Assembly (NCBI GenBank): GCA_041649575.1 | Contig: JBAZMW010000002.1 | Span: 148,487-212,486 of the forward strand | From: Patescibacteria group bacterium | GTDB taxonomy: Bacteria > Patescibacteriota > Patescibacteriia > 2-01-FULL-39-33 | Length of the DNA stretch: 64,000 nucleotides | Reading direction: 5' to 3' | Shown: piece after piece, positions 12,010 to 46,157 of the stretch | How the letters are laid out: each line of letters starts with the position of its first letter | How positions within the stretch are numbered: the stretch's first letter is position 1 | Translations under genes and position numbers: made by a program | The notes under the pieces: model-generated | What the model was told of the DNA's origin: nothing | Seen by the model: the letters and a program-made list of their open reading frames with translations, nothing else | The model's database searches: none

Positions 12010-12235
12010 TTTCATTTCTGCGAGCGCATGAAAATTTAGCAACAAAACAGGCGGAGTTCGAGCGTAAATTTTAATTTGTTTGAGCAAAAGCCACCAGTAA
12101 ACTGGTGGCTTTTGCGAGTTATTAAAATTAGCGAGAACAACCCTGTTTTGTCTAAATTTTCATTTAGCTCGCGCTTTTTTCTTTTGTGTCAGCTTTTCTT
12201 TTTACTAAAAAAAGAAAAGCTGACACAAAAAAAGA
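12010..12235 (-). repeat. Dispersed intergenic repeat, copy A (inverted orientation), with a 19-bp perfect hairpin at 12185-12228
   Basis: Shares cttttctttttttagtaaaaagaaaagctgac(a/g)caaaagaaaaaagcgcga and ...gctcaaac...aaattttcat(g/a)(c/g)gctcgca with the copies at 22162 and 24651. Confidence 0.6.
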
Positions 12236-24650: not shown

Positions 24651-24848
24651 TTGTCACTTTTCTTTTTTTAGTAAAAAGAAAAGCTGACGCAAAAGAAAAA
24701 AGCGCGATCTAATGAAAATTTGGCGCTTTAAGTCAAAATCCTAACAAAATTTTTAAACTCGCTTCGCCTACGGCTCGCTCAAACAGTAAAAATTTAGTAA
24801 CGGATTTTGCCTTACGCTTATTCCAAATTTTCATAGGCTCGCATTGTA
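24651..24848 (+). repeat. Dispersed intergenic repeat, copy B
   Basis: About 80 nt nearly identical to the reverse complement of copy A (cttttctttttttagtaaaaagaaaagctgacgcaaaagaaaaaagcgcga) and the ...gctcaaac...aaattttcataggctcgca tail. Confidence 0.6.
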
Positions 24849-25389: not shown

Positions 25390-27858
25390 ATGAACCTCAA
25401 TATCTCCTACAACTGGCTCAAAGAATATGTCAAGACAGACTTGATGGCTCATGAGTTTGCCAAAAAATTGTCTCTGTCTGGTCCTTCGGTTGACAGAATC
25501 AAAAAAGTCGGGGCGAATTTTGATAAGGTGGTGGTTGGCAAGATGCTGGAAATTAGCAAACACCCCAACGCCGACAAGTTAAATGTGGCCAAGATAGACA
25601 TCGGTAAAAAAGAACCCATTCAGGTTATTTTTGGACAGATGGCGGTGTTGAAAGTCGGGGATCAGTTACCGGTCGCTGTGGCGCCAACCAAGCTGCCTGG
25701 CGGCATAGAAATATTGGAAAGGGAAATGCGAGGCGTCAAATCACAAGGGATGTGTTGCCTGGACAGTGAGCTGGGTTTGTCCGATCAAGACAAGGTGACG
25801 TTTTTTCCGGCAAAGATAAAACCAGGAACTCCGATCGCCCAGGCACTGGAATTGAAAGAAGATTATATTTTGGATATCGAGGTCACTTCCAACCGGCCCG
25901 ATGCCATGAGTGTTATTGGTATTGCTCGTGAAGCCGCGGCCATACTTGGCGACAAATTTTTATATCAGGAGCCCAAAGGATTGCCACCAGTCTCGCCGAG
26001 CCTAGGCGGACGGTCGCGTCGCTCCCTCGCAATGACATTAAAAGTCACCGTCAAAGAGCCAAAGCTTTGCCCGCGCTACCAGGCGGCAGTGATGACCGGC
26101 GTCAAAGTCGAACCGTCACCACTTTGGATGCAGCAGCGATTATTGGCTTCCGGCTTGCGGCCAATCAATAATTTAGTCGACATTACTAATTATATTTTGT
26201 TGGAATTCGGACAGCCGATGCATGTTTTTGATTATGATAAACTGGCCGCCGCCGAGATTAATGTGCGCCTGGCTAAAAAAGGCGAGACTATCTTGGCGCT
26301 TGATGGCAAGGAATATGAATTGGATGAAAAAGTGTTAATTGTTGCCGATGGCAAGAATCCTTGCGCTGTTGGTGGCATAATGGGTGGCGAATTATCCGGC
26401 GCAACCGGTATAACCAAAAACGTAGTTTTGGAGGTTGGTAATTGGGACCCAGTTAACATCAGAAAGACCGCCAGAGTCCTAAATTTGCATTCAGAAAGCT
26501 CTGATTTATACGAGAAGGGTCTAAGCCCGGAAGGCACCCAATCGGCTCTCTTACGGGCCATGGAGCTGGTCGAGGATTTGGCCAGTGGCCAATTGGCCGG
26601 AGAAATCATTGATATTAATAATTACAAACATAAGGTTAAAGAAATAAAACTGGACACAGCCAATGTCAGTCGCTTTTTGGGCGTGACTATCACAAACTCA
26701 CAAATTAAAGAAAGTCTAGACTCTTTGGGTTTTGAAGTTTACCCTGTTAAATCCCGCTCTAAGCGGGACGGCTCTGCCGTACTTAACGGGGTAAAAGTGC
26801 CCTGGTGGCGTGATCGGGATATGGAAGGCGAACATGACCTGATCGAAGAAGTGGCGCGGCTTTATGGCTATCATAATTTGCCCACCAAGTTAATGGCCGG
26901 CGACCTGCTTTCCGCTGTCATTCCGAGCGAAGTCGAGAAATCCCTTAATTTTTATTGGCAAGACAAGGTAAAGGACATTTTGGCCGGCTTTGGTCTGACC
27001 GAGATTTATACCTACTCCTTCATCTCCGAAAAGCAAATTAATAATTGCCGCTTAAACGCCTCGGCCCATCTGAAAATTTCCAACCCCTTGAGCGCTGATT
27101 TTGAATACCTGCGCACTTCGCTCTTACCCGGCGCTTTGCAGATTATTATCGAAAATGCCGGCTTTTTTTCAGAGGTCAAGTTATTTGATCTATCCAATGT
27201 TTATTTGCCGGTTAAAAAAGATGATTTGCCTCTGGAAAAAACAACGCTTCTTGTCATCGTTTCCGCCAAAAGCGGGAAAGCGGCCCTAAATGAAGCCAAA
27301 GGTATTTTTGAAGGCTTACTAAAACGTCTGAATATTTCCGATTTTAAATATTTAAAAGCTGACAATGCCGAAGGTGTTTATTGTCCGCCGAATTCGCGGA
27401 TTATCGTGGCAGAAAAGGGGATTGGCAGTATTAGTCTGGTTGAGCCGAAAGTCTTAGCGGCTTTTGGCGTCAAAAACGACGTGGCCTTTATCGAGGTGGA
27501 GTTTGAAGCCATTGCTTCTCAAGCCAAATCCGCTCCTGCCTATCACTCGATTCCCAAGTTTCCGGCCATTGAGCTTGATCTGTCAATGGAAGTTGATAAT
27601 GTCATTACTTTTACCGAAGTGGCCAATGTTGCCAGCGATGCCGGCGCGCCTTTGGTTGAAAAAGTCGATTTCCTGTCAGTTTATCAGGGAGATCCGTCCC
27701 AGGCCGAGGCCAAGAAGCTGGCTGTAAATAAAAAAGCTTTGGCTATTAGAATCGTTTACCGCGATTTAAACAAAACCCTGGAGCTGGCCGAAGCGCAGGC
27801 CGCGCATCAAAAAATTGTTGCCGCTCTGAAAAAGGGGTATAATATAAAAGTGAGATAG
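25390..27858 (+). CDS. pheT: Phenylalanine--tRNA ligase beta subunit (carries an in-frame GC-rich repeat insertion)
   Basis: tRNA-binding N-terminus (MNLNISYNWLKEYV), B3/4 and B5 domains, C-terminal FDX-ACB-like region. Confidence 0.9.
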   Translation: MNLNISYNWLKEYVKTDLMAHEFAKKLSLSGPSVDRIKKVGANFDKVVVGKMLEISKHPNADKLNVAKIDIGKKEPIQVIFGQMAVLKVGDQLPVAVAPTKLPGGIEILEREMRGVKSQGMCCLDSELGLSDQDKVTFFPAKIKPGTPIAQALELKEDYILDIEVTSNRPDAMSVIGIAREAAAILGDKFLYQEPKGLPPVSPSLGGRSRRSLAMTLKVTVKEPKLCPRYQAAVMTGVKVEPSPLWMQQRLLASGLRPINNLVDITNYILLEFGQPMHVFDYDKLAAAEINVRLAKKGETILALDGKEYELDEKVLIVADGKNPCAVGGIMGGELSGATGITKNVVLEVGNWDPVNIRKTARVLNLHSESSDLYEKGLSPEGTQSALLRAMELVEDLASGQLAGEIIDINNYKHKVKEIKLDTANVSRFLGVTITNSQIKESLDSLGFEVYPVKSRSKRDGSAVLNGVKVPWWRDRDMEGEHDLIEEVARLYGYHNLPTKLMAGDLLSAVIPSEVEKSLNFYWQDKVKDILAGFGLTEIYTYSFISEKQINNCRLNASAHLKISNPLSADFEYLRTSLLPGALQIIIENAGFFSEVKLFDLSNVYLPVKKDDLPLEKTTLLVIVSAKSGKAALNEAKGIFEGLLKRLNISDFKYLKADNAEGVYCPPNSRIIVAEKGIGSISLVEPKVLAAFGVKNDVAFIEVEFEAIASQAKSAPAYHSIPKFPAIELDLSMEVDNVITFTEVANVASDAGAPLVEKVDFLSVYQGDPSQAEAKKLAVNKKALAIRIVYRDLNKTLELAEAQAAHQKIVAALKKGYNIKVR
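25978..26039 (+). repeat. In-frame GC-rich element 'Y' inside pheT (encodes LPPVSPSLGGRSRRSLAMT)
   Basis: Matches about 55 of 60 positions of the reverse complement of 38896-38957 (ggattgccaccagtctcgccgagcctaggcggacggtcgc...cgctccctcgcaatgacatt). Confidence 0.7.
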
Positions 27859-28336: not shown

Positions 28337-28512
28337 AAGTGGTCGGTTGACGGGAATGACAGCCCCAAAAGGCCAAGAGTCCAGGGAAAGGTACTAGGAG
28401 CACTGACCGCTTTGAAAGCAACCGTCTAGCAAGTAAGCCAGAAGGCCTGGCTGGACGATTCTGTCGACCGATTCCGGGGAGCTCGCGGAGGCAAAAGCGG
28501 CTCCCCTTTATC
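28337..28512 (+). promoter_or_regulatory. GC-rich structured leader with intrinsic terminator upstream of lysS (candidate attenuator/riboswitch, unclassified)
   Basis: About 175 nt GC-rich segment ending in GGGGAGCTCGCGGAGGcaaaaGCGGCTCCCC plus a T-rich run, 60 nt before the lysS ATG. No T-box consensus seen. Confidence 0.35.
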
Positions 28513-28570
28513 GATCTTGATTATTTAATCCTTTTTTTGTAAAATTAAAACATTAAACCATTCCCAATTT

Positions 28571-30067
28571 ATGCCAGAAGACAAAAATAAGACCGATTTA
28601 GACGAACGCAAAATGCGCTTGAAGCGCTTGGAAAATATCAAAAAATCGGGCAGCAATCCGTATCCGGAAAAATTTGACAAACAACAAACACTGGCCGACG
28701 CCAAAACTCTAAAAGAGGGGACCGAGGTCAAAACCGCCGGCCGCATTCTTACCATTCGCGACATGGGCAAAATTATTTTTTGCCATTTGCAAGATTTTAG
28801 CGGTAAGTTACAAGTTGTTTTGAAAGAAGATGAGGTTGGCAAAGAAAAATTAAAATGGTTTTTGGATAATTTTGATCTGGGCGATTTTGTCGGCGTGGCC
28901 GGCGAGATTTTCACCACCAAAAAAGGTGAGATCTCCATTTTGGTTAAAAAATACGATTTTTTGGGCAAAGCGCTGTTGCCTTTGCCGGAGAAATGGCATG
29001 GCCTTAAAGACGCGGAGCTTATCTATCGCCAAAGATACTTGGATTTGGTAGCCAATGAAGAATCGATGGCGCGCTTCAAATTACGTTCAGAAATTGTCAA
29101 GGCGCTGCGCGAGTTTTATTGGGGCAGGGGATTTATCGAGGTAGAAACGCCGATTCTCTGCAATACCGCCTCCGGCGCTATTGCCAAGCCGTTTGTCACT
29201 CATTACAACGCTTTGGATTTGGACGTCTATTTGCGTATTGCTCCGGAAATTTATCTCAAAGAATGCATTATCGGCGGACTGGAAAAGGTTTTTGAAATTG
29301 GCCGCTGTTTCAGAAATGAGGGCATGGATCCGTCGCATCTGCAGGATTTTACCATGGTGGAGCATTACGCGGCTTATTGGAATTATGAGGACAACATGAA
29401 GTTCACCGAAGAATTGATTTGCCATCTCCTGGATAAATTTTTCGGCGGCCGAAAAATAAAAATCAAGGATCGAAAAGGGGAGCTAAAAGAAGTCGATTTT
29501 ATGCCGCCTTGGCCGCGGGTGAGTCTGCGGGAACTGATAAAAAAAGACAGCGGTATCGATATTGACAGAGCCGTCACCGCCGAAGAATTGGCTAAAGAAA
29601 TAAAAAAGAAAAAAATTGAAATCGAAGGCGCCGAAAGGTTGAGCCGCGGCGGCTTGATCGACTCTTTGTACAAGCAGGTTTCTCGGTCCAAGCTGATTCA
29701 GCCGACTTTTTTAATCCAGCATCCGCTCGATTTGTCGCCACTGGCTCGGCGCAGCGACGACAATCCGGCCGTTGTCGATCGTTTTCAGCTGATTGTAAAT
29801 ACCTGGGAGCTTTGCAATGCTTATTCAGAATTAGTCGACCCGCTGGATCAGAAAGAAAGATTCGAAAAACAGTCAGTCGCCAAGGACGCTGGCGATAGCG
29901 AGGCCCATGGCAAAGACGATGAATTTGTGGAGGCCCTGGAGCATGGCGCGCCGCCAATTTCCGGCTGGGGTCTGGGCGTTGATCGTTTGGTGGCCTTGCT
30001 GACTCAACAGGATAATTTGCGGGATGTTGTTTTGTTTCCCCTTATGCGACCCCAAAATAAAGAATAA
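28571..30067 (+). CDS. lysS: Lysine--tRNA ligase (class II)
   Basis: OB-fold N-terminus and class II motifs (FIEVETPIL, GRCFRNEGMD, GWGLGVDRLVALL). Confidence 0.92.
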   Translation: MPEDKNKTDLDERKMRLKRLENIKKSGSNPYPEKFDKQQTLADAKTLKEGTEVKTAGRILTIRDMGKIIFCHLQDFSGKLQVVLKEDEVGKEKLKWFLDNFDLGDFVGVAGEIFTTKKGEISILVKKYDFLGKALLPLPEKWHGLKDAELIYRQRYLDLVANEESMARFKLRSEIVKALREFYWGRGFIEVETPILCNTASGAIAKPFVTHYNALDLDVYLRIAPEIYLKECIIGGLEKVFEIGRCFRNEGMDPSHLQDFTMVEHYAAYWNYEDNMKFTEELICHLLDKFFGGRKIKIKDRKGELKEVDFMPPWPRVSLRELIKKDSGIDIDRAVTAEELAKEIKKKKIEIEGAERLSRGGLIDSLYKQVSRSKLIQPTFLIQHPLDLSPLARRSDDNPAVVDRFQLIVNTWELCNAYSELVDPLDQKERFEKQSVAKDAGDSEAHGKDDEFVEALEHGAPPISGWGLGVDRLVALLTQQDNLRDVVLFPLMRPQNKE

Positions 30068-35006: not shown

Positions 35007-35049
35007 CAGAGAATAAAATCGTCTTTTGTTTATTCTTTCTCTTTGCAAC

Positions 35050-35178
35050 CGCAGCCGCAACCGGCCCCGCAGGAACAGCAATGAAAACAAACCTCCGGCT
35101 CGCAGGAACAGCGGGTTTCTTCGTCTATGGGCATCTCGCATTTAGCGCATTTATCCATAAAATTTGGTTAATTATTTA
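35050..35178 (-). CDS. Cys-rich 42-aa peptide (12 Cys; ...CSCEPEVCFHCCSCGAGCGCGC...), metallothionein-like or RiPP-precursor-like
   Basis: Complete ATG...TAA frame, 20 nt downstream of the M23 peptidase gene on the same strand. Strongly GC-rich. Not in the ORF track because it is under 60 aa. Confidence 0.4.
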
Positions 35179-36584: not shown

Positions 36585-36848
36585 ATGGGACTCGTCGCTC
36601 CTGACACTCGCGGCAACGCGTGCTGGCTGATTAAATGCAACAACTGCGGCCATCAGGCGGCTTGGGATGGCTCCAATGCCGAGCAAACCCTTAGCCTGGC
36701 CGAGAATGATGGTTGGACGGTAACTCGAGGCAAGGGCCCAGGTGAGGTGGTCGCTCTGTGCCCCGAATGCAGGAAGAAACAACAGAAAGTCACTCCAGCC
36801 GCCATTGTCAGCCTGATGGATTTCCGCCAAGCATTGCCCAGGCGGTGA
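36585..36848 (+). CDS. Small zinc-ribbon protein (87 aa; CNNCGH...CPEC), G+C-rich
   Basis: GGAGGGAG RBS. Two CxxC pairs. Bidirectional terminator at 36889-36928. Confidence 0.5.
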   Translation: MGLVAPDTRGNACWLIKCNNCGHQAAWDGSNAEQTLSLAENDGWTVTRGKGPGEVVALCPECRKKQQKVTPAAIVSLMDFRQALPRR

Positions 36849-38421: not shown

Positions 38422-39291
38422 TTATTTTTTCTTTACCACCAGCCACCCAAATTTAATGGTGGCATTATAAATCCTACTTAACCGGCGCGGTTCTTGGATT
38501 AGCCGATATAGCCATTCTAACCCCAATCGCCTCAAAAATAAAGGCGCGCGTCTCACCTGTCCCGACAAAAAATCAAAAGTCCCGCCGACGCCAATCGCCA
38601 CTTTAATTTTTGGCACTTTGGCTAAGTTGTCTCTGATCCACTTCTCCTGCCTCACTTGCGGCAAGGCCACCAACAGAATATTGGCTTCGCTGGCATTAAT
38701 TTTTTCCAGCACCTGATTGTTGTTTTCAAATTGCCAACATTTGTTTTCTATGGGATCCCCACGGCCGGCTTCGCCGGCCTCGGGATGACATTGTAGAAGC
38801 GGCCCGCCTTGGTCAAAGCCAGCCACTTTGCCAATATATTTTTCTGCCACTTGTTTTGCCGCTCCTTCTTTTCCGCCCAGTAAATAAATTTTATAAATGT
38901 CATTGCGAGGGAGCGCGAGCGACCGTCCGCCTAGGCTCGGCGAGACTGGTGGCAATCCCGTGGGATCACCGCGTTGCCCGGTCATTTGACCGGGCTCCTC
39001 GGGATGACAACTTAGAAGTGCCTCTATTAGATCCACGCCCGTCACTCTCTCTAATTTTTCTTGTTTTAAAAATTTAGCCGCCCAAACCAGCCCAGCGCCA
39101 TCGCAGGTGGCCAAATCAGCATTATTTAAAATATTTCTGAAAACTTCGTCTTTTTGCGCCGCCACCACAAATTCCGGATTAATCGTCACCACCTGCCTTT
39201 GGCCTTCCGCTGTCAGCCATTTTTTAATTAACTTCAAGGCTTCTGGCAAATTGACCTGATCGATTTTTATTCCCAGTATTTCTATTTTCAT
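38422..39291 (-). CDS. WecG/TagA/CpsF-family glycosyltransferase carrying three in-frame GC-rich repeat insertions
   Basis: VVTINPEFVV...ADLATCDGAGLVWAAKF...GVDLIEALL and C-terminal RVAGPDL-type region are typical TagA. Extra segments CHPEEPGQMTGQRGDPTGLPPVSPSLGGRS and CHPEAGEAGRGDP. Confidence 0.75.
   Translation of the reverse strand: MKIEILGIKIDQVNLPEALKLIKKWLTAEGQRQVVTINPEFVVAAQKDEVFRNILNNADLATCDGAGLVWAAKFLKQEKLERVTGVDLIEALLSCHPEEPGQMTGQRGDPTGLPPVSPSLGGRSLALPRNDIYKIYLLGGKEGAAKQVAEKYIGKVAGFDQGGPLLQCHPEAGEAGRGDPIENKCWQFENNNQVLEKINASEANILLVALPQVRQEKWIRDNLAKVPKIKVAIGVGGTFDFLSGQVRRAPLFLRRLGLEWLYRLIQEPRRLSRIYNATIKFGWLVVKKK
38751..38799 (-). repeat. In-frame GC-rich element 'X', copy 1
   Basis: tgggatcccc-[GGCCGGCttcGCCGGCC hairpin]-ctcgggatgacattgtagaag. 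Same flanks as copy 2 with a different, compensatory hairpin. Confidence 0.6.
38896..39018 (-). repeat. Composite in-frame element X2+Y (about 120 bp) bounded by imperfect inverted termini TGTCATCCCGAGG / CCTCGCAATGACA
   Basis: Y part (38896-38957) is homologous to the pheT insert. X part (38961-39018) is homologous to X1 and has the hairpin GCCCGGTCAaaTGACCGGGC. Confidence 0.6.
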
Positions 39292-39294
39292 AAG

Positions 39295-39984
39295 CTACTT
39301 TTTTAGATAATTCACGATGATTTTGGCCTGGCTCTGGTTTTCTTTGTCGTCCTTAAAAGACATCAGGCCAAAAATGTCGCCTTTCCAAAAGCCCAAATTA
39401 ATTTCATAATCTGCCAGATTTTCCTTAAACTCAAAGCCGCTTTCCTTCAGCTTGTTTTTGTAGTAGCCGGCCACCTCTTCTTTCGGCTGGCTTATCTGTT
39501 TCCAGGACAAAGAGGTTGTTTCCATTTTTTTCAGTTCCGGCGAGCTTAGGGCTTTTTTTAATTCCTCCGGCGTAAAACCGCGCGACAAGTCTATTTTATC
39601 GGCAAAACTTTGGCTTAATTTAGCTTTCAAATCATTGGATAAATAAGCCAAAGTCGGCTTAAGCAGCCAGTTTGGTAAAAGGCCCATGATTTTCAAAAGT
39701 TTTTCCTTGCCTTCTGGCGTCTGCAGTTCAATCTCGGCTTTTTCCGGCAGATAAATGGCCAGTTCTTCCGGGAAATCACCCGGCAACTGGTTGACTTTTT
39801 CCACCACCGGAGAGACCGCCAATCTGACAGCGGCAAAAAGAGTAATGAAGATAATTACCAACGCCAAAATTAAACAACCGAAAAATTTGATAAATTCTCG
39901 GCTTCTATTTTTTTCCGGATTGTTCAGGTTGAGTTCCTGCCAATTTTTCATTATTTCCTGGCTAATTTTATTATATTCTAGCAA
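39295..39984 (-). CDS. Hypothetical membrane-anchored protein (229 aa)
   Basis: N-terminal TM (FFGCLILALVIIFITLFAAV). No known motif. Confidence 0.5.
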   Translation of the reverse strand: MLEYNKISQEIMKNWQELNLNNPEKNRSREFIKFFGCLILALVIIFITLFAAVRLAVSPVVEKVNQLPGDFPEELAIYLPEKAEIELQTPEGKEKLLKIMGLLPNWLLKPTLAYLSNDLKAKLSQSFADKIDLSRGFTPEELKKALSSPELKKMETTSLSWKQISQPKEEVAGYYKNKLKESGFEFKENLADYEINLGFWKGDIFGLMSFKDDKENQSQAKIIVNYLKK

Positions 39985-40031
39985 ATACCAGCCTTTTTTG
40001 CAAAAGTAAATCAGTCTTGTTATAATAAAAG

Positions 40032-40245
40032 TGGTTCATTTCCTCGAGACCCGAACTGGTCATTTGGGTCTCACCGCTCCGGTGGGGAAGCGAAACCAGC
40101 GCCTTCGCTTCCCCTCTGGCTTAACCAAAGCACCTTGGTAGCACTTCCCGGGTCTACTGAAAGCCGCATCCAGGCAAGCATTAGACCCGTTCCCGCTGTG
40201 GCGGCCGATGGCATCAGTCATCAGCCGTCCTTTTTGTTTATCCAC
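40032..40245 (+). ncRNA. Candidate structured RNA R1 (about 210 nt, unclassified)
   Basis: TTGCAA-17-TATAAT promoter at about 40001-40024. GC-rich hairpins GAGACCC...GGGTCTC and GGGGAAGCGAA...TTCGCTTCCCC. T-run at 40230-40245. Confidence 0.3.
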
Positions 40246-40289
40246 AGTTAAATATTTATAACCAAAGAAATCTTTGCTATAATAAAATC

Positions 40290-40625
40290 ACATTGGACAT
40301 GGGGCTTGTCAAATGGCCCTGCAACCAGTCCGAACGGAGAACGAGCCATGAGAACAAAGACAACGAAGCGAGCAGCAGTGGGCGTGATGGTCGATGGCAC
40401 CGGCGGAACAGCGTACTTGGCGACGTCCTGACCTAACGAGAACGGTCGGACTGGGCGTCAAAGAAGTTCTCCGAGACGCTTGACTCAACCCAAGCGTCTC
40501 GCCGCACCTTAACTCTCCTCGGAGAGTTGTGACTATAGGTTTTCACGCTTTGACAAAGCGTGGACATCCCCCTAAGGTGAGCAGTCGGTTGCTGACAGGT
40601 AGCCGACTCTCTTTTTGTTTTTAAA
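40290..40625 (+). ncRNA. Candidate structured RNA R2 (about 330 nt) with SD and a 27-codon Thr-rich mini-ORF (40347-40430), ending in an intrinsic terminator
   Basis: Extended -10 TGCTATAAT at 40275-40283. Long-range pairing CAGTCCG...CGGACTG. Terminator GTCGGTTGCtgacaGGTAGCCGAC plus CTCTTTTTGTTTTT. Confidence 0.3.
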
Positions 40626-40767
40626 AAATTTAGTTATCCACAGGTACTATTTATTTCTTTAAAAAATAGTTATATAATGAAAGTGCGGAAGGTATTTACG
40701 ATAGCGTACAACCGAAGCAGGCCATCGGCCAAACGATCGGCCAAACGAAAGAAAGGTGGGACGGAAG

Positions 40768-41259
40768 ATGAGAAAGTTCGTGTTTTGTACGGTAGTACTG
40801 GCGTTCGCGTTTGTGATGATTCCGGCGACGAATACTCCGGCATACGCGACGCAACTCGATCAAGGCAAGGCAGTGGCGACGGCTCCGACGACGATGGGGA
40901 CGACGCAGCAGGACGTGCAGACGGCGATGAAGAGCAACCTGGTCCTCGACGGCACCGGGCAGAAAGTCGCTGAAGTGATGAAGGCGCCGACTCTTGACTC
41001 CGGACGAGTGATTGCGCAGACGGCGACGACGAAGACGGCACGCGAAGAGCAGACGAAGATCACGGCGAAGAGTGACACGGTTGTAACGGCGAAGATCGAA
41101 GCGCAAGGCATGGGCGAGCAGATGGCAGCGGCTGGCGAAGATGACGCTGGCACGATCATCGTGGCGACGAAGAGTGACACCTATGCGACGAGAATCGAGG
41201 GCCGTATCGCTCACGACGCGGACGCGACCTTCAATGCGAACGTTCTGATCATCGGCTAA
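40768..41259 (+). CDS. Secreted Thr/Ala/Lys/Gln-rich small protein (signal peptide, cleavage after AYA), G+C-rich
   Basis: AAAGGTGGGA RBS. MRKFVFCTVVLAFAFVMIPATNTPAYA signal peptide. Low-complexity mature part. Terminator at 41349-41390. Confidence 0.5.
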   Translation: MRKFVFCTVVLAFAFVMIPATNTPAYATQLDQGKAVATAPTTMGTTQQDVQTAMKSNLVLDGTGQKVAEVMKAPTLDSGRVIAQTATTKTAREEQTKITAKSDTVVTAKIEAQGMGEQMAAAGEDDAGTIIVATKSDTYATRIEGRIAHDADATFNANVLIIG

Positions 41260-41424
41260 CCACGCGGGCAGCGCCGAAAGTCAGAACGAGTAGTACCTTG
41301 GATACACAACCGATACCGGCCAACAGTCGGATCGGCCACCTCCAGAGTTGGGTCAGCTGGCAACGGCGACCCTCTCTTTTTTTGTTTTGAAAAAATTTGC
41401 CAAAATTTTATAAATTTTTTATAC

Positions 41425-41756
41425 TATAAGCAAGCGGTTCCTGCTGTGGGAACCGTGCACATTGGGTCAACGGGTCAACCGGAGGGTACAAGCAATATGA
41501 AAAAGGAAATGAGAGCGCAGGGTTTGGTCGTGGCGAAATGGAAGTAGGCTAGACCGTAGCAAGGCAACTTAGCGTTGTTGGGCGGAGGCCCCAACTAACA
41601 GTGGGCCTCCGCTGAATCTTTCCCTCGCTTGAGCGGGGTGCTGGTATATCCTTCTCTGAAGGGGTTCCCCCGTTGGGAAGTGTTGCCCATTCAACGCCTC
41701 CTGACCGCACAGGCTGCAATTTGTCGCAAGACGAAGGGCAGCCTGAATTATTTTTT
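41425..41756 (+). ncRNA. Candidate structured RNA R3 (about 330 nt) with SD and a 16-codon mini-ORF (41497-41547), ending in an intrinsic terminator just upstream of the radical SAM gene
   Basis: GC-rich. Hairpins GGCGGAGGCCC...GGGCCTCCGCT and CAGGCTGC...GCAGCCTG followed by AATTATTTTTTG. Confidence 0.3.
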
Positions 41757-41781
41757 GCTATACTTAATTTATACTGAATTT

Positions 41782-42657
41782 ATGAGAGCAGCCAAATTTT
41801 ACAAAAAATCAGGGGCTAATGTTAAATGTCAGCTTTGTCGGCATTTTTGTCTGATTGCCCCAGCCAAGTTCGGCCTCTGCGGCATGAGGAAGAATATCGA
41901 CGGCCGGCTTTATTCTCTTAATTACGGTAAAATCATTGCCAGCCAGATTGACCCGATCGAAAAAAAACCGCTCTATCATTTTTTGCCAGGCAGTTTTGCT
42001 TATTCTTTGGCTTGCCCCGGCTGTAATTTTAAATGCCTTAATTGCCAAAATTCCGATCTTTCCCAAATCACCCCGGCTTTACAAAAGGCCGTTGATTCTT
42101 TGCCGGAAACCAGGCCGGAAGAGATTGTCGAGGCGGCCTGGGAAAACAATTGCCCGTCAATCGCTTATACCTATACCGAGCCCACCATTTTTGCCGAGTT
42201 TGCTCTCGACTGCATGGAGCTGGCCAGAGACAGTAATCTAAAAAATATCTGGGTTTCCAATGGCTATCTGTCGCCCGGTTGTCTGGAGGCCATCAGCCCC
42301 TATCTTGACGCCATTAATATTGATTTGAAATTTTTTAGCGATAAAAATTATCAAAAAATTTGCGGCGCTCGCCTAAAACCAGTCTTGGATAATCTGGTTG
42401 CTTTTAAAACAGCCAAAATTCATTTGGAAATCACCACTTTAATCATTCCCTCACTTAATGATAGCGATGAAGAGTTAACCGCTCTGGCAGAGTTTATTTA
42501 TCAAAAATTGGGCGACGACACGCCCTGGCATCTGGGCGCCTTTCACCCCGCTTACAAATTAAAAAATTTACCGGCTACGCCGACAGAAACCATCAAGCGG
42601 GCCCAGGCAATCGGGAAAAATATCGGCCTGAAATATGTTTATCCGGGAAATGTTTGA
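41782..42657 (+). CDS. AmmeMemoRadiSam system radical SAM enzyme
   Basis: AKFYKK...VKCQLCRHFC...GLCG...NYG then CPGCNFKCLNCQN (CxxxCxxC) typical of this family. Start moved to the ATG at 41782, since the upstream extension runs through RNA R3. Confidence 0.75.
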   Translation: MRAAKFYKKSGANVKCQLCRHFCLIAPAKFGLCGMRKNIDGRLYSLNYGKIIASQIDPIEKKPLYHFLPGSFAYSLACPGCNFKCLNCQNSDLSQITPALQKAVDSLPETRPEEIVEAAWENNCPSIAYTYTEPTIFAEFALDCMELARDSNLKNIWVSNGYLSPGCLEAISPYLDAINIDLKFFSDKNYQKICGARLKPVLDNLVAFKTAKIHLEITTLIIPSLNDSDEELTALAEFIYQKLGDDTPWHLGAFHPAYKLKNLPATPTETIKRAQAIGKNIGLKYVYPGNV

Positions 42658-45835: not shown

Positions 45836-45861
45836 GAACGGGCACCGGTTGGCACCCGTTC
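45836..45861. terminator. Bidirectional terminator between def and a convergent small gene
   Basis: GAACGGGcaccggttggcaCCCGTTC. Confidence 0.5.
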
Positions 45862-45892
45862 GGTTCCACAGAACAAACTCACGTCGCCTTGA

Positions 45893-46099
45893 TCACGCTG
45901 GCTCCAGCAGTCTGAAGCATATCATCATGCCGATGAAGCAACAGGCCGCCACAACCATTAAGCGCTCGATTCTCCTTTCCCAACCATGCCTCATGTTTTC
46001 ATAGACGAGTGGGATCGCAAAGCCGGAGAATAAGCCAATTAGGCCAAGAACCACCATGACCACTAGCAATGCACCGTGATATGCGGTAAACATGTCCAA
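45893..46099 (-). CDS. Small membrane protein (68 aa, two TM), G+C-rich
   Basis: AGGAGGG RBS before the ATG (minus). GC-rich relative to flanks. Confidence 0.45.
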   Translation of the reverse strand: MDMFTAYHGALLVVMVVLGLIGLFSGFAIPLVYENMRHGWERRIERLMVVAACCFIGMMICFRLLEPA

Positions 46100-46157
46100 G
46101 ACCCTCCTGTGTCTGTTGAAATTGTGCTTGTCAAAAACATACCATTAAAATTTACAA

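Follow-up and report, generated by a model that had tools for sequence, protein, structure and literature searches.

Candidate small RNA genes and an orphan secreted-protein gene in a variable chromosomal gap of an uncultured Patescibacteria bacterium

Dual-function small RNAs (sRNAs), such as SgrS/SgrT, RNAIII/hld and SR1/SR1P, combine a structured regulatory RNA with a short open reading frame (ORF) that follows a Shine-Dalgarno (SD) sequence, and the known examples show conservation of ORF and pairing region alike. The cia-dependent small RNAs (csRNAs) of streptococci are encoded by several sRNA genes that are transcribed and terminated independently, from promoters that depend on an upstream activator site (TTTAAG-N5-TTTAAG) located 10 bp before the -10 element rather than on a good -35. 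They are ~90-150 nucleotides (nt) in length, form two stem-loops, and show high similarity to one another and between species (PMC3091779). LhrC1-5 of Listeria monocytogenes make up a multicopy sRNA family under the control of the response regulator LisR, and pair through single-stranded CU-rich regions with AG-rich SD regions (PMC5880928). DnaA acts as a transcription factor, activating or repressing, at boxes located outside of oriC (PMC8203912, PMC4447404). Here, we describe a gap in a 64,000-nt stretch of DNA (hereafter the window; contig JBAZMW010000002.1) from an uncultured, Buchananbacteria-related bacterium of the Patescibacteria, or Candidate Phyla Radiation (CPR). The gap holds four back-to-back units, termed R1, R2, U3 and R3. 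With confidence that is about evenly balanced, we read it as an island of three orphan, independently transcribed, structured sRNAs and one orphan secreted protein, in which two of the promoters carry a conserved upstream element resembling a DnaA box.

Regulatory RNAs of the CPR have apparently been little described, and full-text literature searches found no paper on sRNAs of Patescibacteria. If expressed, the units would be stand-alone sRNA genes in a reduced, episymbiont-type genome, and one fixed position in the chromosome would see its genes for sRNAs and small secreted proteins turn over completely between lineages, with a promoter element retained. The promoter module formed by this element is a concrete and testable handle on the locus, which is otherwise an ordinary island of orphan genes.

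Four mini-genes between two conserved gene blocks

The gap is flanked by two conserved, divergently transcribed gene blocks (Table 1). Its units, with AT-rich spacers between them, have a GC content of 0.54-0.60, which is high when set against ~0.44 for the window as a whole. All are on the same strand, and each is equipped with a sigma-70-type promoter and an intrinsic terminator. The original prediction had described four plus-strand units of this kind, and all of the elements that it named are present in the sequence. Promoter-like sites are enriched between positions 39500 and 42300 (10 vs 2.3 ± 1.9 in shuffled sequences), and the -10 context TATAATAAAA is a general promoter form of this genome (11 matches vs 1.7 expected). 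A scan for hairpins followed by T-runs returned four plus-strand terminators and no more within the locus (40231, 40610, 41375 and 41749); their stems have energies between -14.8 and -24.7 kcal/mol.

When compared to dinucleotide shuffles, the predicted folds of R1, R2 and R3 have z-scores of -5.57, -2.80 and -3.58, respectively. Their period-3 signal-to-noise ratios are 0.28, 1.17 and 1.26 (the values for R2 and R3 are not significant), vs 16.5 for the U3 ORF, and Pfam gave no match among the 10 longest ORFs of R1-R3 on either strand. R1-R3 are therefore non-coding in bulk, and the possibility that they are decayed protein genes was rejected on the same two results. What is generally looked for in a trans-encoded sRNA gene was found in all three units, namely an intergenic position, a promoter and Rho-independent terminator of their own, a stable structure, and no protein-coding signal.

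R1 has a single-stranded 5′ tail of 16 nt, which is followed by four hairpins and by the terminator hairpin (40200-40230) with its T-run (40231-40239), and its promoter lies back to back with that of the divergent 218-amino-acid (aa) gene (TATAATAAAATTA, 39963-39975, minus strand). R2 is made up of a long-range helix, three further hairpins, and a terminator hairpin (40583-40608) that is followed by a T-run. R3 contains a hairpin at 41582-41591/41603-41612 and a terminator at 41710-41745, with a T-run at 41751-41756. The individual elements proposed earlier were recovered, including hairpins GAGACCC/GGGTCTC (40047-40072) and GGGGAAGCGAA/TTCGCTTCCCC (40084-40114) in R1, the extended -10 TGCTATAAT and the long-range helix CCAGTCCG/CGGACTGG (40325-40336/40443-40454) in R2, and GCGGAGGCCC/GGGCCTCCGC and the 41710-41745 hairpin in R3. 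The end of the R3 T-run does lie 25 nt before the ATG of the AmmeMemoRadiSam radical SAM gene. R2 and R3 each also contain a putative mini-ORF behind an SD-like sequence. That of R3 stands where it was reported; that of R2 is present too, although its coordinates (previously 40347-40430) had to be corrected to 40348-40431, including the stop codon. It has no match in PHROG. The suggestion that R2 and R3 share an architecture did not hold up as homology: the two have no sequence similarity (local-alignment z of -1.2), and the CAACC motif thought to be common to them is not enriched (42 matches to a ACAACCGA-type pattern vs 38.9 expected).

U3 is the protein gene of the island, and the earlier claim of a Thr- and Ala-rich protein with a signal peptide at this position was borne out. 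The region is T-poor and leaves five of six frames open for at least 98 codons, so that the ORF alone is not convincing. None of 300 shuffles attained its period-3 ratio (by the same measure, the radical SAM gene has a value of 6.2), purines occupy 79% of first codon positions, and the GC content at third codon positions is 0.74 vs ~0.5 in host genes. Because of this periodicity, the codon-position composition and a Sec signal peptide, the U3 ORF looks truly coding. Its codon usage differs from that of the host: G accounts for 0.49 of third positions (0.2-0.3 in host genes), ACG for 20 of 25 Thr codons, where the host prefers ACC, and AAG for nine of 10 Lys codons, where the host uses AAA in 201 of 255 cases. 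As read from the translation, the protein begins with MRK and 15 hydrophobic residues (FVFCTVVLAFAFVMI), then continues with PATNTPAYA and, past the cleavage point, TQ. It thus has the basic n-region, hydrophobic h-region and A-x-A cleavage motif of a signal peptidase I substrate, and looks Sec-exported on the strength of this predicted, canonical signal peptide. Thr and Ala are abundant in the mature part, which contains an internal repeat (TAKSDTVVTAKIE/ATKSDTYATRIE).

The sequence ATCGGCCA occurs three times in the untranslated regions (UTRs) of the U3 mRNA, at 40724 and 40736 within a 12-nt sequence repeated in tandem in the 5′ UTR, and at 41331 in the 3′ UTR; the window holds 12 copies vs 2.4 expected. 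The 5′ arm of the R1 terminator (40203-40212) contains GGCCGAUGGC, which would pair perfectly over 10 nt with positions 40721-40730 of the same mRNA. This match could be an R1-mRNA pairing, a protein-binding site, or chance.

Neither the RNAs nor the protein belongs to a family that we could identify. In agreement with the original prediction, which had seen no hallmarks of transfer-messenger RNA, RNase P, signal recognition particle (SRP) RNA or T-box, none of R1-R3 is a known housekeeping or regulatory RNA, with 6S RNA, riboswitches and ribozymes covered as well: Rfam 15 at gathering score, run on the whole window, gave no match in the locus, and ARAGORN found no transfer RNA (tRNA) or transfer-messenger RNA in it, the only tRNA being tRNA-Gln at 62.6 kb of the window. 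When the Rfam threshold was relaxed to E ≤ 10, only noise was seen in the locus (14-22 bits vs gathering scores of 36-85) and in four related loci. In order to compare the gap with its relatives, 182 loci anchored on the radical SAM gene, gltX and the 218-aa protein family were fetched (designated by L numbers), and no homologue of R1, R2, U3 or R3 was found in them. Nor was a match obtained for R1-R3 by nhmmer against 80 radical SAM-anchored and 80 gltX-anchored loci, for the units of the locus by blastn in distant mode against phage and plasmid collections, or for R1-R3 by blastn-short and Smith-Waterman alignment with shuffles among all units of this gap. The closest genomes in the collections are distant, with GluRS at most 64% identical and the flanking 218-aa protein at most 49% identical. 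The U3 protein matched only itself among 5.8 billion clustered proteins (word-indexed search) and among 1.84 billion representatives (exhaustive HMMER search), and has no relative in Pfam, NCBIfam, PHROG, PADLOC or PDB; beta-lactamase lines in the NCBIfam output were noise (15-18 bits vs cut-offs of 680-880). A single-sequence AlphaFold2 model had a predicted local distance difference test score of 42.8, too poor for a fold search.

Table 1. Coordinates of the island, its flanking genes and the related RNA family
Feature	Position	Strand	Remarks
Gap with units R1, R2, U3 and R3	40001-41760	+	~1.75 kb, between two conserved gene blocks
R1 promoter	39998-40026	+	-35 TTGCAA, 17-nt spacer, TG-extended -10 TATAAT (40021-40026)
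R1	40033-40240	+	Candidate structured non-coding RNA, ~210 nt
R2 upstream promoter element TTATCCACA	40238-40246	+	Perfect DnaA-box consensus, 40 nt before R2 -10
R2 extended -10 TGCTATAAT	40275-40283	+	-35 position poor (TTTATA)
R2	40290-40622	+	Candidate structured RNA, ~330 nt
R2 mini-ORF, 27 codons (MRTKTTKRAAVGVMVDGTGGTAYLATS)	40348-40431, including stop	+	GGAG 8 nt 5′ of ATG; putative
Second TTATCCACA	40634-40642	+	39 nt before U3 -10
U3 -10 TATAAT	40673-40678	+	-35 position poor (TTTATT)
U3 ORF, orphan 163-aa secreted protein	40768-41259	+	NCBI annotation WC518_02045
U3 3′ UTR	41260-41388	+	Terminator hairpin 41350-41372, T-run 41377-41388
R3 promoter	41397-41425	+	-35 TTGCCA, 17-nt spacer, -10 TATACT
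R3	41432-41756	+	Candidate structured RNA, ~325 nt
R3 mini-ORF, 16 codons (MKKEMRAQGLVVAKWK)	41497-41547	+	GGAGGG 10 nt upstream; putative
Radical SAM gene promoter	TGCTATACT at 41756-41764; -10 TATACT at 41770-41775	+	-10 lies 6 nt before ATG
AmmeMemoRadiSam radical SAM gene	41782-42657	+	TIGR04337, 294 bits
Left block		-	218-aa hypothetical gene (39295-39951), wecG, gltX, M23 peptidase
Right block		+	AmmeMemoRadiSam radical SAM gene, 451-aa secreted protein, LigB/Memo protein, def, fmt
Relatives' UCUCCUUCCGC RNA family	L081:5965-6172 (-), L163:395-545 (-), L164:540-812 (-)		Gap orthologous to the locus

The promoter module and the same gap in related genomes

The element TTATCCACA, which precedes R2 and U3, matches the DnaA-box consensus TTATNCACA at nine of nine positions. 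It also occurs 40 and 39 nt before the -10 elements of L081 unit B and of the L168 unit, respectively. In the 1.85 Mb of fetched DNA, the pattern TTATCCACA-N28-31-TATAAT was found four times, vs a mean of 0.025 in shuffled sequences, and all four modules (two in the window and one each in L081 and L168) are situated in the orthologous gap in the same orientation. The DNA between TTATCCACA and the -10 is not conserved, and the module is the sole conserved feature common to the gap of the window and those of its relatives. Where TTATCCACA is present, -35 hexamers are poor; they are good (TTGCAA, TTGCCA, TTGACA) in R1, R3, L081 unit A, L164 and L178, which are without it. From the poor -35 hexamers and the fixed distance of TTATCCACA we infer that the R2 and U3 promoters depend on an activator bound at this element. 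DnaA is the obvious candidate, judging from the sequence match.

Beside the 218-aa gene family, the content of the gap differs in almost every lineage and amounts to zero, one or two structured units. No unit is found in L082, in L169-173 (Candidatus Buchananbacteria) or in L174-177. A single GC-rich promoter-to-terminator unit occupies the gap of L164, one unit plus a 67-aa ORF that of L163, and one ~320-nt unit those of L178-181 (fold z of -8.4 for the L178 unit), while L081 has two units. In L168 there is one long unit (~510 nt) followed by an IS110-family transposase. All of these units, like those of the window, are oriented away from the 218-aa gene. The transposase (L168:1086-2441; Pfam PF02371) adjoins the structured unit that carries the TTATCCACA promoter element, and its presence fits with the gap being an insertion hotspot.

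Three of the relatives' units, L081 unit B and those of L163 and L164, constitute a small RNA family that we refer to by its motif, UCUCCUUCCGC. Its layout comprises an invariant single-stranded TCTCCTTCCGC, a hairpin (P2), an A-rich linker, a second hairpin (P3) and a terminator, with stems that differ in sequence between members. Smith-Waterman z-scores are 8.6 for L081 unit B vs L164 and 2.7 for L081 unit B vs L163. The motif is complementary to an SD sequence (GGAAGGAGA) and is thus anti-SD-like. No Rfam match was obtained for the family. Since three members are not enough for a covariance model and the 5′ arm of P2 was displaced in the MAFFT alignment, an nhmmer profile was used instead; apart from the three sequences that went into it, the profile retrieved nothing, and the window gave no match. 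Even with one mismatch allowed, the motif does not occur in the locus, and R1, R2 and R3 align to the units of this family with local-alignment z-scores of at most 1.3, so that only position and strand are common to them. Since there is no sequence match to the relatives' units, those of the window are positional analogues and not demonstrable homologues. Read as its reverse complement, GCGGAAGGAG, the motif is reminiscent of the GGAA-loop region in 4.5S RNA, and an SRP RNA on the opposite strand was considered. This was rejected, given that Rfam searches of both strands gave no SRP match and that the T-runs of the terminators fix the strand.

Weighing the explanations

Under the reading that we prefer, the locus would be a lineage-specific island of four monocistronic mini-genes in a fast-turnover gap. 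R1-R3 would be released as discrete RNAs of ~210-330 nt and would most likely be trans-acting regulatory sRNAs, working via base pairing or protein binding. R2 and R3 might additionally yield peptides (27 and 16 aa, respectively) and would then be dual-function RNAs. An activator at TTATCCACA, with DnaA as the candidate, would co-regulate R2 and U3. Between relatives, the transcribed bodies have presumably been replaced or have diverged beyond recognition, while the promoter module was kept. Several results weigh against this reading. R1, R2, R3 and the U3 protein are without a homologue in any of the collections searched, and selection on the RNA bodies is not demonstrable because there are no homologues from which covariation could be obtained. 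In the 182 loci and the phage and plasmid collections, the conservation or covariation and conserved seed that usually mark an sRNA were not seen. Enrichment of CU-rich anti-SD words is absent from R1 and R2 and only weak in R3, and the locus contains only two DnaA-box-like sites. Duplex predictions (RNAduplex) between the units and the translation-initiation regions of window genes gave long, loop-ridden, GC-dominated duplexes and were discarded as uninformative.

The lack of homologues is shared ground with an explanation that we regard as unlikely, in which the GC-rich bodies would be foreign DNA, either newly acquired or in decay, with no function of their own, and their signals are partly fortuitous or left from earlier occupants of a recombination-prone gap. 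The composition of the units and the codon usage of U3 are unlike those of the host, gap occupancy differs in every relative, and an IS110-family transposase in one relative and a different 67-aa ORF in another fit the same picture. Functionless DNA is harder to reconcile with four units that each run from a complete promoter to a strong terminator and all face the same way, with hairpin content above that of shuffles, or with a 163-aa ORF that is intact and strongly periodic. Moreover, TTATCCACA is held at a fixed spacing in three genomes whose flanking proteins are only 47-49% identical.

It is rather improbable that R2 and R3 are chiefly mRNAs for micro-proteins (27 and 16 aa) with long structured 3′ UTRs, which would leave R1 as the only non-coding unit and make the island a cluster of small-protein genes. 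Both mini-ORFs have GGAG or GGAGGG 8-10 nt before the ATG in a stretch predicted to be mostly unpaired, both have a bias to G-ending codons like that of the 163-aa gene, and other gaps of the window hold small GC-rich genes for 87-aa Zn-ribbon, 66-aa membrane and 42-aa Cys-rich products. The mini-ORFs nevertheless cover only 25% (R2) and 16% (R3) of their transcripts, show no period-3 signal, and have no homologues or family matches. An ORF of at least 15 codons with an SD and an ATG arises by chance in 17-19% of shuffles of each unit (17% for R2). An SD-like core precedes only ~8 of 59 window genes (with rough start calls), so that SD-led translation is not the norm here.

More doubtful is a broader proposal, that the gap is a dedicated fast-turnover expression site of Buchananbacteria-like CPR, with conserved promoter and terminator scaffolds, among them a DnaA-box-gated promoter, into which each lineage places unrelated GC-rich payloads. 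Were this true, the DnaA-box promoter would tie expression to replication or to DnaA-ATP status, and the payloads (structured RNAs, micro-proteins and secreted proteins) could serve fast-changing interactions with hosts or phages.

The original prediction likened R2 to an amino-acid attenuator upstream of a Thr-rich secreted protein. R2 and R3 each end in a terminator just 5′ of a gene, and six of the 27 codons of the R2 mini-ORF are for Thr. That one or both of them are cis-acting leaders (Thr attenuator, riboswitch or T-box) gating read-through is now very improbable, and the attenuator was not upheld. The Thr codons are scattered, with a longest run of two, where an attenuator would have a tandem run of regulatory codons. 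The stop codon (40429-40431) is followed by ~150 nt and three stable hairpins before the terminator, and, as read directly from the sequence, the 5′ arm of the terminator can pair elsewhere over no more than ~6 bp (GCAACC/GGUUGC). Alternative antiterminator and terminator pairings coupled to a ribosome at the end of the leader ORF were accordingly not found in R2. Instead of a continuous path to a gene of the cognate pathway, a promoter (TTATCCACA and the -10 at 40673) intervenes between R2 and U3, and U3 encodes an orphan secreted protein that is not biosynthetic. No Rfam leader, T-box or riboswitch matched even at E ≤ 10. Downstream of R3, the radical SAM gene likewise has a promoter of its own between terminator and start codon (TGCTATACT and TATACT). 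Its -10 (TATACT or TATAAT) lies only 6-8 nt before the ATG, with no SD, in the window as well as in L163, L164 and L178, which suggests a leaderless mRNA. With so short a distance to the ATG, R3 would not be its leader.

Equally remote is the idea that the TTATCCACA boxes are a DnaA-binding chromosomal element (origin-related, datA, DARS or box-cluster type) to which the RNAs are incidental: two nine-of-nine matches within 400 bp, three exact copies in the window and a site between divergently transcribed gene blocks speak for it, but there are only two boxes at the locus, one-mismatch boxes are not enriched in the window (16 vs 13 expected), no AT-rich unwinding region with clustered boxes is present, each box keeps the promoter geometry of 39-40 nt to a -10, and GC skew is negative at 36-41 kb, positive only at 40-43 kb and negative at 42-54 kb. 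A replication origin at the locus is unlikely for the same reasons, namely two boxes only, promoter geometry and no persistent origin-type skew switch.

GC-rich, lineage-variable small genes and RNA-like elements fill several other gaps of the window; the locus is not a one-off but the largest example of what is a general habit in the clade. At 28338-28525 (plus strand) there is another candidate structured RNA, ~190 nt long and GC-rich, that has a promoter of its own (-10 TATATT). Its 5′ GGUCGGUUGACGGGA pairs with its 3′ UCUGUCGACCGAUUCC, its fold z is only -1.9, and a terminator-like hairpin closes it ~45 nt ahead of the gene for a class II aminoacyl-tRNA synthetase (28571-30067; Pfam tRNA-synt_2). 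It has no T-box or other Rfam match at E ≤ 5, and the corresponding gap of L081 is only ~90 nt long. At 36585-36848 (plus strand), a GC-rich gene with its own promoter encodes an 87-aa Zn-ribbon protein (CxxC...CxxC) between gltX and the M23 peptidase gene, on the strand opposite to both. L169 has an unrelated 87-aa gene at this position (BLASTP E of 9.9), and small genes therefore turn over in the gltX/M23 gap too. Two more GC-rich mini-genes, both intergenic and on the minus strand, were found at 45850-46110 and 35035-35160; one encodes a 66-aa membrane peptide (MFTAYHGALLVV...) between def and fmt, and the other a 42-aa Cys-rich peptide (MDKCAKCEMPIDEETRCSCEPEVCFHCCSCGAGCGCGCKEKE). The window also contains two pairs of inverted 72-nt repeats that are 92-94% identical (38896-38967 with 25969-26039, and 12154-12225 with 24652-24721). 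The GC-rich copy of the first pair belongs to a GC-rich insertion in wecG, where it lies in frame; across this insertion the protein reads ...CHPEEPGQMTGQRGDP... The repeats look like small mobile elements that are able to sit inside genes.

Comparison with known systems

Leader-peptide attenuators, such as that of the thr operon, resemble R2 in having a short ORF with Thr codons 5′ of a terminator. R2 differs from them in that it has no run of regulatory codons and no convincing antiterminator, and in that the gene after it has a separate promoter and is not biosynthetic. The anatomy of R2 and R3, a structured RNA with an SD-preceded short ORF, matches that of dual-function sRNAs, although ORFs of this kind are common by chance in shuffles of both units.

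LhrC-like pairing of CU-rich stretches with SD regions (PMC5880928) is plausible for the CU-motif RNAs of the relatives and possibly for R3. The LhrC RNAs are homologous siblings, however, whereas the units of the window are not paralogues, and use of SD sequences in this genome appears low. With the csRNAs (PMC3091779), the island shares the organization into independent sRNA genes, candidate ones in this case, and the putative use of upstream-site promoters, to which TTATCCACA-N30/31-TATAAT of R2 and U3 is the parallel, and the UCUCCUUCCGC RNAs of L081, L163 and L164 share with them an unpaired anti-SD stretch. In contrast to the csRNAs, R1-R3 are 210-330 nt long, contain numerous hairpins, and show no relationship among themselves or to any other sequence; neither R1 nor R2 has an enriched anti-SD motif, and the putative activator site is further upstream, at ~-45. 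Finally, the R2 and U3 promoter regions resemble DnaA-regulated promoters outside of oriC (PMC8203912, PMC4447404) in carrying a consensus box away from the origin. Well-studied promoters and box clusters of this kind usually have several boxes, whereas R2 and U3 have one box each at a fixed 39-40 nt from the -10.

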